IMG/VR virus record: IMGVR_UViG_2617270943_000003
Location: 1-53,880 of that record
DNA: 53,880 bases
From: a virus
Taxonomy: Duplodnaviria > Heunggongvirae > Uroviricota > Caudoviricetes
Reading direction: 5' to 3' (one strand)
Position 1 is the first letter of the stretch; every line of letters starts with the position of its first letter. The notes beneath the pieces were generated by a model. It was not told the origin of the DNA, ran no database searches, and was given only the letters and a program-made list of their open reading frames with translations. Position numbers and translations under genes: made by a program. Below, piece by piece: positions 9,074 through 25,750 of this stretch.

Positions 9074-9102
9074 ATTGACTCGGTGTTTTACGGGGCGTAT
9101 AT
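9074..9102 (+). promoter_or_regulatory. Sigma70-like promoter (TTGACT-17bp-TATATT) for the rightward early operon
   Basis: Consensus-like -35 and -10 with 17-bp spacing; flanked by the inverted repeat TTGACTCG/CGAGTCAA (9074-9111) and preceded by GTATACAAAATGG. Confidence 0.4.
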
Positions 9103-9451
9103 TGCGAGTCAAAGGAAGGGCGCAGGTAACAAAAGCAACTTCCTGGCACTTTAAAAATCAGGCTTAACACCTTGTCAACCGTGGAGTAACTCCCCGATGG
9201 GGGACCGAAAGCGGCACTGATAACAAGGCGCATGGGGTGTTTAAAGCGTTACATCCCCCACGAAACCGCACGCAAGGCGACGAGTCAGCTTGCTTGGAGT
9301 GAGCAAGGTCACGCCGGGAACGGCGATGATTGCGGGATTAGTTGAAAGATGTTAAGCCGCTCATTAACAATCTGGTCAGCCGCTGGAAGTGCGGCAATTA
9401 ACGAAGATGATTTTTTATTAAGTGTCATCAAGGATATACGGAGATCAGATT

Positions 9452-10958: not shown

Positions 10959-11243
10959 TTGGCGATGGGTGATTATTTAAAAGCACCGCCGCCGCCGCGA
11001 ACAAAAGAGCAAGTTTTAAGAGAAGCCCGTGATCAAATCGATCGCGGGCTTTTTTTATGCGGCACGGCAGCGGATCGAATGGCGAAAAGATTTAGTGACC
11101 TGTACGCAAAGCAAATATGGTTCGACAACTGGCAGGCAAGTTTTTACCCACTACAGAAAGCTGATGATATGCATTGGCCTGAATATGTCGATCCACGTAT
11201 GCGCAAATATCGCGGGCGTATGGGCCAGGTTATTAACGATTAA
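10959..11243 (+). CDS. Hypothetical protein
   Basis: 94 aa ORF in the early operon. Confidence 0.45.
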   Translation: MAMGDYLKAPPPPRTKEQVLREARDQIDRGLFLCGTAADRMAKRFSDLYAKQIWFDNWQASFYPLQKADDMHWPEYVDPRMRKYRGRMGQVIND

Positions 11244-11257
11244 TGAGGTATTAAATC

Positions 11258-11482
11258 ATGATCGAAGATAAAGAAGTTGACGGAGAAATTCCTGATGGCG
11301 CTGATGAGCTTATCACTTTCGGCGGCGGGCTGTACGAATTCGAGACGTCTGCTGGCTGGGTTGATAAATGGCCTTTCCCTACTCGACAGGAATTAAGCGA
11401 ACGTAAATCATTTGGCGAAGATGCCGAACGCCTGGCGAATAATAAATGGTTGGATAAATTTATTGCGGAGGCTGATAAATGA
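11258..11482 (+). CDS. Hypothetical protein
   Basis: 74 aa ORF in the early operon. Confidence 0.45.
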   Translation: MIEDKEVDGEIPDGADELITFGGGLYEFETSAGWVDKWPFPTRQELSERKSFGEDAERLANNKWLDKFIAEADK

Positions 11483-11598
11483 GCATGGTAAAAATTGCGG
11501 CATTAGCCGCCGCCTTCGTTATTGTGGTGATTTATATCACAGCTTCTTTTTATGTCGCCGTTTTTATTGCTGAATTAATTGTTGCATTGTTGGGGTGA
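11479..11598 (+). CDS. Small hydrophobic membrane peptide (39 aa)
   Basis: MSMVKIAALAAAFVIVVIYITASFYVAVFIAELIVALLG; ATGA stop/start overlap with the upstream gene. Confidence 0.3.
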   Translation: MSMVKIAALAAAFVIVVIYITASFYVAVFIAELIVALLG

Positions 11599-11601
11599 GT
11601 T

Positions 11602-11721
11602 ATGAAGGTTTGCAAGAATATTGTGAGGGTCGCTTTTTGCGTTATTTGTTTCCTGTTTACGATTGTGTTTTGCGGCGCACTTGCGGCGGTGATTAGCTTT
11701 ATTTGTAAAGGGGCGATGTGA
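11602..11721 (+). CDS. Small hydrophobic Cys-rich membrane peptide (39 aa)
   Basis: MKVCKNIVRVAFCVICFLFTIVFCGALAAVISFICKGAM; GGGGTGAG Shine-Dalgarno-like sequence 5 nt upstream. Confidence 0.3.
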   Translation: MKVCKNIVRVAFCVICFLFTIVFCGALAAVISFICKGAM

Positions 11722-11993
11722 TGGTTACTTGGAATGTAAAAGAGGGCGATCTTGTTGTTTTGCCAGAATATCGTAGCGACCCTGGTCTGGTTGTGCTGAA
11801 CAAGACATATAACGATCTTGAACGCCCGATCCTGGTTAAATATCTGGATGGAACAATTATAGAGCCGCGTTTCTTTGACAAGATTGAACTGAAGGCCCGC
11901 AATGTTCGCGTTAAGCCGTTCCGGGCTTATGTTGAAAACCACTGGCGGAAATTATTCGCCGGATTAAATGGGATGTTCGGCGTATGCCTATAA
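11721..11993 (+). CDS. Hypothetical protein
   Basis: ORF 11718-11993; ATG at 11721. Confidence 0.45.
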   Translation: MVTWNVKEGDLVVLPEYRSDPGLVVLNKTYNDLERPILVKYLDGTIIEPRFFDKIELKARNVRVKPFRAYVENHWRKLFAGLNGMFGVCL

Positions 11994-13449: not shown

Positions 13450-13547
13450 TTATGGACGACACATTGTTTTATATGTGCTGTTGCTGTGGTTTTATTGCCT
13501 TATGCCTGTTTATCAGGTGGTTTATTGAATACCATATGAGGTGAGGC

Positions 13548-13742: not shown

Positions 13743-13935
13743 ACACTATAAAGAATGGAAAATTCCAGAATCAGCAACAAAGGCAGCGCCAGGAAATTTT
13801 TCTGGCGTTTATTTTTATATGGATGGCAAATGGTATTTCGGCAGCAGGCCGGATCACTATTATCAGGAAATATGCAAGCCTCACGTATGGGATATTAAAG
13901 AGCGCGTGAAAGGCGGTGTGATTGAGGACGTTTAG
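13732..13935 (+). CDS. Hypothetical protein
   Basis: 67 aa ORF. Confidence 0.4.
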   Translation: MKFKHYKEWKIPESATKAAPGNFSGVYFYMDGKWYFGSRPDHYYQEICKPHVWDIKERVKGGVIEDV

Positions 13936-13936
13936 A

Positions 13937-14164
13937 ATGATGCGTGCACTTATTGACTTCATTATGGGCTGGCTATTTTGTTCTTTTTTTGTATTATCAT
14001 GTATAGCTACGGTTCTTATTGGAATTTTATGCGGTGTGTCTTTTGTTACATGGGAACTACCAGAAATGCCATCACCTGATGATGCGCTTTATATGTTAAG
14101 GATCATTATTGCTGTTAGTGTATTTGTTGGGTTCTTTTTCGCTGATTCTACTGATGATTTATGA
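13937..14164 (+). CDS. Small membrane protein (two predicted TM helices)
   Basis: MMRALIDFIMGWLFCSFFVLSCIATVLIGILCGVSF...IIIAVSVFVGFFFA; start at ATG 13937 with GAGGA upstream. Confidence 0.4.
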   Translation: MMRALIDFIMGWLFCSFFVLSCIATVLIGILCGVSFVTWELPEMPSPDDALYMLRIIIAVSVFVGFFFADSTDDL

Positions 14165-24800: not shown

Positions 24801-25292
24801 ATGATTAGCCAATCGCTGAAAAACAAGATTGTTGCGGCGGCGGCTGGTGGGGCGATCGCTATTGCGGCGGTGATGATTAAGCCATTAGAGGGCGTGGAAC
24901 ACGATCCCTATCGTGATGTTGTAGGTGTATGGACTGTTTGCTACGGTCACACCGGGAAAGACATCATGCTTGGTAAGACTTACACGCAATCAGAATGCGA
25001 TGCTTTGTTAAATAAAGATCTACACAAGACCGCAAAAGCGATTGACCCATATATCAAAGTCGAAATATCAGATTTTACCCGCGCTGCACTTTATTCCTTC
25101 GCCTATAACGTAGGCGCAACCAACTTCAAAACATCAACCTTATTAAAGCTACTCAATGACGGCAGGAAATCGGAAGCGTGCGCACAGCTTAAACGCTGGG
25201 TATACGCTGGCGGTAAGAAGTGGCAAGGCCTGGTAAACCGCCGCGATGTTGAATATGCCGTTTGCGAATGGGGGGAAACGTGGACAAGGTGA
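24801..25292 (+). CDS. Endolysin, phage lysozyme (GH24) with N-terminal signal-anchor-release domain
   Basis: N-terminal weakly hydrophobic Gly/Ala-rich segment [18 protein letters not shown] followed by the lysozyme catalytic region (E...D...T: [23 protein letters not shown]). Confidence 0.85.
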
Positions 25293-25750
25293 AGGCGTTA
25301 ATTATCGCCGCTGTTGTTTGCATTATTGCCGGACTTACCGCCGTAACGTGTTATTACCAGGGGGAAACGGCAAGGTTACAGGAAGAAGTCACGGTGACGA
25401 AAGGCGCACTGAAAACGGCAAGTAACACTATTCAGCAGATGAAGGAGCGAAACGCCGAACTGTCAAAACTTGATAAGAGGTATCACGATGAGATTAAAGC
25501 TATCAGATCTGACATTGCCGATCTGCGCACTGGCATTGATAACGGCACTATCAGGCTGCGCGTCAACGCAATACCCGTGCGAGTGTCCGACTCCGCCGAA
25601 TCCGCCAGCCGCATTGATGGAGCCTCCTGTAGACTCACTCCCGACGCTGAATCGGCTTATCTATCCCTCAGAGAACAACTAAAAGAGAAAGATGCGAAGA
25701 TAACCGCGCTTCAGGGCTACATCAAAACACAGTGCTTACGCAAAGAATAA
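25262..25750 (+). CDS. Rz: Spanin, inner membrane subunit (Rz-like)
   Basis: N-terminal TM helix then coiled-coil periplasmic domain; overlaps lysozyme 3' end; contains embedded Rz1. Confidence 0.7.
25488..25682 (+). CDS. Rz1: Spanin, outer membrane lipoprotein subunit (Rz1-like), embedded in Rz
   Basis: Lipobox ITALSGC and Pro-rich mature region ([17 protein letters not shown]), entirely within Rz in another frame. Confidence 0.7.
   Translation: MRLKLSDLTLPICALALITALSGCASTQYPCECPTPPNPPAALMEPPVDSLPTLNRLIYPSENN

Follow-up and report, generated by a model that had tools for sequence, protein, structure and literature searches.

Here, we report that two adjacent open reading frames (ORFs) of 39 codons each in a temperate coliphage are almost certainly real genes for small membrane peptides. 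The ORFs lie on the + strand of a 53,880-nucleotide (nt) stretch of phage DNA (IMG/VR record IMGVR_UViG_2617270943_000003, positions 1 to 53,880; here called the window), with ORF1 at 11479-11598 (MSMVKIAALAAAFVIVVIYITASFYVAVFIAELIVALLG) and ORF2 at 11602-11721 (MKVCKNIVRVAFCVICFLFTIVFCGALAAVISFICKGAM), exactly where an earlier note made from the sequence alone had placed two mini-ORFs of 39 amino acids (aa). The surrounding region is 78-83% identical in DNA sequence to that of seven phages (mEp021, mEp010, mEp013, mEp044, mEp515, mEp554, and MagusPhagus), and prophages in 35 of 5,426 complete Escherichia coli genomes match it, with identities of up to 98%. The window is a relative of mEp021 and belongs to the mEpimmI group of temperate coliphages. 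That group is non-lambdoid, and the earlier note was mistaken in assigning the ORFs to a lambdoid early region.

Conservation of the pair was assessed in 73 related loci with sufficient upstream sequence, taken from phage isolates and prophages as well as from contigs of IMG/VR and of metagenomes. A homolog of ORF2 (38-40 aa) was intact and abutted the downstream 90-aa gene at every locus (73/73), and a homolog of ORF1 (35-39 aa) was intact at all but one, where a 1-nt deletion falls in a run of five A residues at the start of ORF1 (IMGVR_UViG_3300045988_060283; locus L012, 1236-1310). Both ORFs were open in 7 phage isolates and 4 prophages, as well as in 38 contigs from IMG/VR and 25 loci from metagenomes, and they were represented by 39 distinct nucleotide haplotypes for ORF1 and 43 for ORF2. 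Length differences within each ORF were multiples of three, and the spacer between the ORFs varied from 2 to 9 nt. Frameshifted copies were rare. Four singleton proteins (P0024-P0027) consist of ORF1 or ORF2 fused out of frame to downstream sequence, and such copies are either assembly errors or instances of occasional decay.

The pattern of substitution points to selection on the encoded peptides. Three sequence types could be distinguished, a main type, the type of the window (W), which is rarer, and the MagusPhagus type (M). Pairwise ratios of nonsynonymous to synonymous substitution rates (dN/dS; Nei-Gojobori) were 0.15-0.42 for ORF1 and 0.03-0.41 for ORF2, with synonymous differences that were often saturated, and values fell to 0.03-0.21 within the main type. 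The flanking genes gave 0.07-0.28. Synonymous changes exceeded nonsynonymous changes significantly in every pair tested, with Fisher P values from 0.011 to 1.5e-8. The W type is 43-54% identical to the other types in ORF1 and 53-79% identical in ORF2, and identical or near-identical copies of the window ORFs are found in prophages and IMG/VR contigs. W-type ORF1 ends in ...FIAELIVALLG, and W-type ORF2 has five cysteines. Moreover, the W and M types of ORF1 are always paired with the W and M types of ORF2, respectively.

Each ORF also has the signals expected of a translated cistron within an operon. ORF1 is preceded by a Shine-Dalgarno sequence, GGAGG (11467-11471, +), which lies 7 nt before its ATG and within the 3' end of the upstream gene, and the longer form GCGGAGG is kept in 8/8 aligned phages. 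A Shine-Dalgarno-like sequence, GGGGTGAG (11592-11599, +), precedes ORF2 and overlaps the ORF1 stop codon, and relatives carry TGAGG 7-8 nt ahead of the ORF2 ATG. The stop codon of the upstream 74-aa gene and the ATG of ORF1 overlap as ATGA, 3 nt separate ORF1 from ORF2 in the window, and the stop codon of ORF2 and the ATG of the downstream 90-aa gene overlap as TGATG. The start/stop overlaps and the Shine-Dalgarno sites are conserved across relatives, as is the position of the pair between homologs of the mEp021 genes gp22 and gp23. Tight packing within an early operon, which the earlier note had claimed, is borne out both by these junctions and by the synteny.

The sole exception to adjacency is informative. 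In the prophage of E. coli STEC308, a 714-nt gene annotated by RefSeq as KilA-N is located precisely between ORF1 and ORF2 (locus L011, 932-1657), and the arrangement is identical in STEC306 and STEC307. Both ORFs are intact on either side of the insertion, with ORF1 remaining beside the 74-aa gene and ORF2 beside the 90-aa gene. Thus, ORF1 and ORF2 are independent cistrons, and the boundary between them is a site at which an extra gene has inserted.

The peptides are dominated by one hydrophobic helix each, as had been proposed. A stretch of 26 residues is free of charged and amide side chains in both (residues 6-31 of ORF1 and 10-35 of ORF2). When all ATG-initiated ORFs of 30-60 aa in the six frames of the whole window were ranked by grand average of hydropathy (GRAVY), ORF1 was first of 197 (2.24) and ORF2 was third (1.86). 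The uncharged stretch is 26-29 residues long in the three sequence types, and the best 19-residue hydropathy window scores 2.2-3.0. With a length of 35-40 aa, the homologs have the size and architecture of small membrane proteins (<=50 aa, single transmembrane helix). ORF1 has a short N terminus with one lysine, a helix at about 6-31, and a C-terminal tail of the form K/E-L-I-x-x-M, and its invariant residues are K5, I6, A7, L9, A11, Y19, S23, I30, L33, and I34, with Y25 almost so. ORF2 has a basic N terminus (MKVxKD/N; net charge of +1 to +3), a helix at about 10-35, and a tail of 3-5 residues. C13, F17, F19, G25, A28, A29, and I34 are invariant in an alignment of 14 ORF2 variants, and rare C13F/Y variants occur outside that alignment. 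By the positive-inside rule, the basic N terminus of ORF2 suggests an N-in/C-out topology.

ORF2 had been described as cysteine rich, which is correct for the window, with its five cysteines, and does not extend to the family. Most relatives have three, the M type has one, and C4 and C35 are restricted to the W type. ORF2 might have been a lipoprotein, and this was rejected, as the lipobox [LVI][ASTVI][GAS]C is not matched. Most variants read IVFC or VVFC, with phenylalanine at -1; VVSC occurs in one subtype only, and the M type has alanine in place of Cys24. A "mature" lipoprotein would, moreover, be a hydrophobic stub of 15 aa. ORF1 and ORF2 were also considered as paralogs, and hhalign showed no relationship between them. 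Finally, ORF1, its TGA, a GTT codon, and ORF2 are in the same frame in the W type, such that read-through would yield an 80-aa protein with two helices. Read-through was rejected, as most relatives have an out-of-frame spacer (7-8 nt in most other types) and the main type has a second stop codon. The in-frame arrangement of the W type is probably incidental.

Comparison with known families identified no relative of either peptide outside this phage group. ORF1 and ORF2 had no match in Pfam, NCBIfam, PHROG, or PADLOC models, and the best Pfam and NCBIfam E values (0.02-0.14) were at noise level, all to unrelated membrane families. When an ORF2 profile was run with HMMER against all of 1.84 billion representative proteins, the hits were three members of the ORF2 family itself and a single spurious match to a repeat protein. 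Likewise, a tblastn search of 50,697 phage records with ORF2 gave matches confined to the seven mEpimmI phages. The tblastn search with ORF1 came back empty, probably because of low-complexity masking, and the exhaustive search for distant relatives covered ORF2 only. A word-indexed search with a concatenated ORF1 and ORF2 profile retrieved only 40-aa variants of ORF2 and the four frameshifted singletons. As far as these sequence comparisons reach, the family appears to be an orphan confined to the mEp021-type phage group.

The ORFs themselves are not new to databases. Annotated homologs include mEp010_29/_30, mEp044_27/_28, mEp013_28/_29, mEp515_31/_32, mEp554_27/_28, and MagusPhagus CDS0113/0112, and records based on PHANOTATE list both ORFs as "hypothetical protein" (mEp010_29/_30 and equivalents). 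Two entries from E. coli 2-156-04_S3_C2, KDW32505.1 and KDW32614.1, are named "putative membrane protein" and are identical to ORF1 and ORF2 of the window. RefSeq annotates ORF2 in UMNK88, and WP_000868625.1 is an ORF2 homolog. The GenBank record of mEp021 omits both ORFs, and most RefSeq prophages show a 240-nt gap instead. Thus, the pair is already known as hypothetical or putative membrane proteins in several records, to which no function has been assigned. The homologs in the mEpimmI phages share the position between gp22 and gp23, the lengths, and 43-100% identity, and they are true homologs.

When the peptides are made can be predicted from the operon. The + strand carries every gene from ~9.4 kb onward, and a consensus scan found a promoter-like site at 9075-9103. 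Upstream of the pair lie gp17, a 39-aa ORF, erf, ssb, an abc2-type anti-RecBCD gene, and the 74-aa gene (11258-11482, +), a homolog of mEp021 gp22 that belongs to phrog_28542 and has a weak DUF2737-like match. The mEpimmI phages are non-lambdoid temperate phages of the gut, reported to be as common in human feces as lambdoid phages, and they have three nut sites and encode Gp17, an antiterminator resembling lambda N (PMC11893012). Since ORF1 and ORF2 are located between the gp22 and gp23 homologs, they lie between nutR1 and nutR2 (PMC11893012, Fig. 7 legend). A hairpin resembling an intrinsic terminator and followed by U7 (11018-11056, +) is found inside the Abc2-like gene, ~420 nt upstream of ORF1. 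The hairpin is strong (-25.9 kcal/mol; z = -6.3), ARNold terminators are annotated at the corresponding site of mEp010, mEp044, mEp013, mEp515, and mEp554, and it is probably one of the terminators overridden by Gp17 antitermination. A simple terminator scan overlooked it, and it matched the Rfam family Thr_leader only below threshold, with 23.9 bits where the gathering score is 55. Because the pair is downstream of a strong terminator and within a repressor-controlled operon, ORF1 and ORF2 would be delayed-early genes that are silent in the lysogen and dependent on antitermination.

How the peptides might act is a more tentative matter. The proposal we prefer, while rating it somewhat short of an even chance, is that they pack by their helices against a host inner-membrane protein and alter a function of the envelope. 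ORF1 and ORF2 would be translated separately from the early rightward operon under the control of the lambda-N-like antiterminator, and the peptides would be made only after infection or induction, once antitermination is active. Each peptide of ~39 aa would form one transmembrane helix with tails of 4-9 residues and would be inserted in the E. coli inner membrane. Once there, it would engage in helix-helix packing within the bilayer, as other bacterial small membrane proteins do. In ORF1, the stripe of invariant Tyr19 and Ser23 and an AxxxA motif are candidate contacts, as are Cys13, GxxAA, and the aromatic residues of ORF2. The peptides would pack against a larger protein of the host inner membrane, and ORF1 and ORF2 might also contact each other. 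Division, transport or DNA entry, or proteolysis would thereby be altered to the benefit of the phage, and the peptides would not form a pore. We infer membrane location, topology, timing, and the mode of action as a whole from sequence.

Three considerations lead us to favor binding to a membrane protein. First, ORF1 and ORF2 are internal cistrons without the promoter, the leader, or the antisense RNA of a type I toxin. Second, depolarization of the membrane early in infection would hurt a phage that has a conventional late lysis cassette. Third, the invariant polar, small, and aromatic positions are typical of helix-helix packing. Small membrane proteins mostly bind larger membrane proteins, and type I toxins depolarize the membrane (reviewed in PMC12648545). 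MgtS, MgtR, MgrB, AcrZ, CydX, and KdpF resemble ORF1 and ORF2 in having <=50 aa, one helix, and minimal tails, and they bind a larger membrane protein in the bilayer (PMC12648545), which by analogy may be true of ORF1 and ORF2 as well. The phage peptides differ from regulators of the MgtS kind in that they have no sequence relationship to them, are phage encoded, and are produced as an adjacent pair from a lytic early operon. With respect to contact between the two peptides, the charge of the ORF1 C-terminal tail (+1 in the main type, -1 in W, and 0 in M) varies inversely with that of the ORF2 N terminus (+1/+2, +3, and +2, respectively). The inverse pattern may hint at an ORF1-ORF2 contact and is offered as a lead only.

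Several observations weigh against the favored proposal. At 0.3-0.4, the dN/dS of the W type against the other types is rather high, and constraint may amount to little beyond a requirement to stay hydrophobic. The Pfam, NCBIfam, PHROG, PADLOC, HMMER, and tblastn searches contained no homolog of known function. The conserved residues show no significant clustering on one helical face (P = 0.075 for ORF1 and 0.40 for ORF2). Moreover, the covariation of charge comes from three lineages and presumes antiparallel helices, such that it is meaningless if both peptides are N-in. Finally, variants of ORF1 and ORF2 recombine freely within the main type.

The most serious of the alternatives, which we nevertheless regard as unlikely, is that the peptides are membrane-damaging toxins of the type I or holin-like kind that oligomerize, dissipate the proton motive force, and shut off or kill the host early in lytic growth. 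This reading comes closest to the host killing suggested in the earlier note. Fewer than 60 aa, one transmembrane helix, and very short tails are the architecture of a type I toxin (PMC12648545), and prophages harbor some of the type I systems (PMC12648545). Hok/Gef, Ldr, TisB, IbsC, ShoB, DinQ, and ZorO have the same size, hydrophobicity, and single helix as ORF1 and ORF2. The conserved hydroxyl stripe of ORF1 (Y19, S23, and Y25) could line an oligomer, and the predicted repression in the lysogen is what a toxic product would need. Neither peptide, however, matched the Hok/Gef, Ldr, TisB, Ibs, ShoB, or holin models of Pfam, NCBIfam, and PHROGs, and a consensus scan, which can overlook weak promoters, revealed neither a separate promoter with a long 5' untranslated region nor a promoter for an antisense RNA at these internal polycistronic cistrons. 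Early depolarization would also harm a phage that needs the energy of its host for nearly the whole latent period. Moreover, the window encodes its lysis cassette elsewhere, at 24801-25750, with an endolysin (24801-25292) and Rz/Rz1 (25262-25750). A role as a holin or antiholin was rejected, as ORF1 and ORF2 are 13 kb from the lysis genes and have no holin match in PHROG or Pfam.

Phage early operons encode division inhibitors, small transmembrane peptides like SidA of Caulobacter block the divisome, and lambda-like siphoviruses require inner-membrane sugar transporters for entry of their DNA. Perhaps, then, ORF1 and ORF2 specifically inhibit division through a component of the divisome or exclude superinfecting phages through the ManYZ/PtsG route of DNA entry. 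We think this quite unlikely; it is a specific subcase of the mode we favor, in which a single-pass or polytopic inner-membrane protein would be bound, and it takes up the second suggestion of the earlier note, that of division inhibition. In keeping with exclusion, the receptors of mEpimmI phages are LamB, OmpA, or OmpC (PMC11893012). Neither target is indicated by sequence, however, and mEpimmI phages already possess Lpp-type exclusion lipoproteins and, as a distinct gene, one that the authors of the work on the group named Kil-like (PMC11893012). Furthermore, a gene that is repressed in the lysogen cannot shield the lysogen from superinfection.

Other small phage products invite comparison. 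Lambda Kil is directed at FtsZ and is not known to be a transmembrane peptide. Kil and other division inhibitors resemble ORF1 and ORF2 as small N-dependent products of an early operon that includes recombination genes; they differ in that the ORFs have no sequence match to them in Pfam or PHROG and are almost entirely transmembrane helix. The 37-aa lysis protein of the ssRNA phage M inhibits MurJ and the E protein of phiX174 inhibits MraY, each a tiny transmembrane peptide that binds one enzyme of the host inner membrane. Those proteins are the sole lysis genes of small phages, whereas the phage of the window has an endolysin and Rz/Rz1 and carries ORF1 and ORF2 among its early genes. Finally, Ipe of mEp021 was considered as a precedent for a small membrane protein within the group and was set aside, as its sequence is not hydrophobic.

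It is decidedly improbable, in our estimate, that ORF1 and ORF2 are translated but functionless filler, kept so that, from the 74-aa gene to the 90-aa gene, translational coupling is maintained and Rho-dependent polarity is avoided. The start/stop overlaps that flank the pair do suggest coupling, T-rich sequence readily gives rise to hydrophobic ORFs, the orphan family is limited to one phage group, and ORF1 of the W type diverges strongly from that of the other types, as its 43-54% identity indicates. Filler would not account for purifying selection at the amino acid level (dN/dS as low as 0.03-0.21 within the main type), for specific polar and small residues that are invariant, or for peptides held at 35-40 aa. 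In addition, both ORFs stay intact even when split by the KilA-N gene, and a mere spacer could be lost, yet the pair is present in 73/73 loci.

An antisense ORF of 130 codons with a GTG start (11550-11942, -) overlaps the pair, and the conserved element could in principle be this ORF, or an RNA structure or terminator, instead of the sense ORFs. The antisense ORF is long in the window and has its third codon positions in common with ORF1 and ORF2. Variability by codon position therefore cannot separate the frames, and stop codons can. In 49 loci, the frame that begins at the homologous GTG was open for 17-130 codons, and in 27 of them it ended before codon 74, inside the 90-aa gene and short of ORF2. 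All 130 codons were kept only in the W type, and the overlap of the open antisense stretch with the ORF pair ranged from 18 to 243 nt across relatives. Purifying selection acts on the sense frame of the 90-aa gene, which the antisense ORF also crosses, and the variation of the ORF1-ORF2 spacer is out of frame. No promoter-like site for minus-strand transcription across the ORFs was found in a consensus scan, which could miss weak promoters. Thus, what is conserved in related phages is the mini-ORFs and not the antisense frame, which is interrupted by premature stop codons in most of them. The earlier note had named conservation of the antisense frame as what would refute its reading, and that check came out in favor of the note.

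The length of the antisense frame in the window has a simple explanation. Asp, Glu, Lys, Asn, Gln, His, and Tyr are the amino acids whose codons have A at position 2, and a transmembrane helix avoids them. In this phase, the T with which any antisense stop codon starts needs A at sense position 2, and hydrophobic codons, which have T there, exclude it; the antisense stop codon at 11550-11552 overlaps the codon for Tyr25 of ORF1. T occupies position 2 in 50-55% of the sense codons of the pair. The earlier note had regarded the antisense ORF as a shadow of an AT-rich coding region, and the shadow is real. The region is mildly AT rich (41.6% GC against 46.0% for the window), and its true peculiarity is the T at codon position 2.

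Within ORF1, positions 11497-11513 form a GC hairpin with a terminator-like pattern on both strands, and the mEp021 record MH706966 annotates a predicted terminator, TERM_2, there. The hairpins of ORF1 are, however, no more stable than those of shuffled sequence (z of -0.4 to -1.5), their shape varies from phage to phage, the + strand lacks a proper U tract, and Rfam has no match in ORF1 or ORF2. They arise from runs of GCN alanine codons, and a terminator or other RNA element in ORF1 was rejected as a candidate. We conclude that the antisense and RNA readings, to which we would assign hardly any chance, are essentially excluded.

The downstream neighbor of the pair deserves comment for its name. 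The 90-aa gene (11721-11993, +) is a homolog of mEp021 gp23 and belongs to phrog_28396, and NCBI labels its product "toxin-antitoxin system toxin subunit." Searches of NCBIfam, Pfam, PADLOC, and PDB gave no match to the protein, and AlphaFold modeled it with low confidence (pLDDT of 52). The gene had zero relatives among 185,579 species-representative genomes and none outside E. coli phages. The name appears to be unsupported.

Other small hydrophobic ORFs are encoded in the window. A tandem array of ten (21-32 aa; GRAVY of 1.15-2.36) occupies ~840 nt at 26675-27513 (+), flanked by a 194-aa gene, itself downstream of the lysis cassette, and by the gene for the small terminase. The array ORFs mostly abut or overlap (ATGA), and a Shine-Dalgarno-like motif (for instance, AGGTGA or GGTGAGT) accompanies each. 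Many start with M-x-x-x-[DE]-[FLM] and appear to be paralogs, among them MKLLDFFFLIVAIVLTMTALTQ, MRESDFIYMVLAIVLITWALTL, and MREADFFCMIIVIVIVAVLLSVN. The array has 4 copies in mEp021, where it falls in an unannotated gap (locus L053, 676-995), ~10 in mEp010 (L051, 376-1106), and 11 in MagusPhagus (L052, 375-1361), and PHANOTATE fuses several of the ORFs into longer ones with alternative starts. Two further ORFs are found in the early operon. One, at 13452-13544 (+), encodes 30 hydrophobic aa with four consecutive cysteines (MDDTLFYMCCCCGFIALCLFIRWFIEYHMR), and the other, at 13922-14164 (+), encodes 80 aa with two hydrophobic stretches and is unrelated to mEp021 Ipe.

We note that the C terminus of ORF1, AVFIAELIVALLG (11545-11598), resembles part of the array mini-ORF at 26779-26877, AAFIAELIIVILFG (26809-26862), and that a GGTGAGT(T)ATG motif is found after or beside each. 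Homology was not accepted, as the ~70% nucleotide identity comes from a codon alignment made by eye and the segments are too short and hydrophobic. The likeness could be due to chance or to old paralogy.

The finding that ORF1 and ORF2 are genes is useful and sound, and it is unsurprising in that no new principle is demonstrated. It does illustrate a trap for annotation, as hydrophobic coding automatically leaves the opposite strand with a long open frame, which can be taken for the gene. Small membrane peptides of phages are systematically missed, as these two have been although they are conserved like core genes. We speculate that ORF1 and ORF2 might form a hetero-oligomeric membrane complex, an unrecognized device for host takeover or exclusion that would be part of a larger repertoire of micro-membrane proteins, a possibility that we too consider quite unlikely. 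If it were so, the more than 12 micro-membrane proteins represented by the ORF pair, the array at 26675-27513, and the early mini-ORFs would constitute a largely unannotated functional layer in a phage family that is prevalent in the gut. Ultimately, ORF1 and ORF2, at 39 codons each, are two cheap targets for work on the ways in which phages of this family manipulate the envelope of E. coli at the start of lytic growth.

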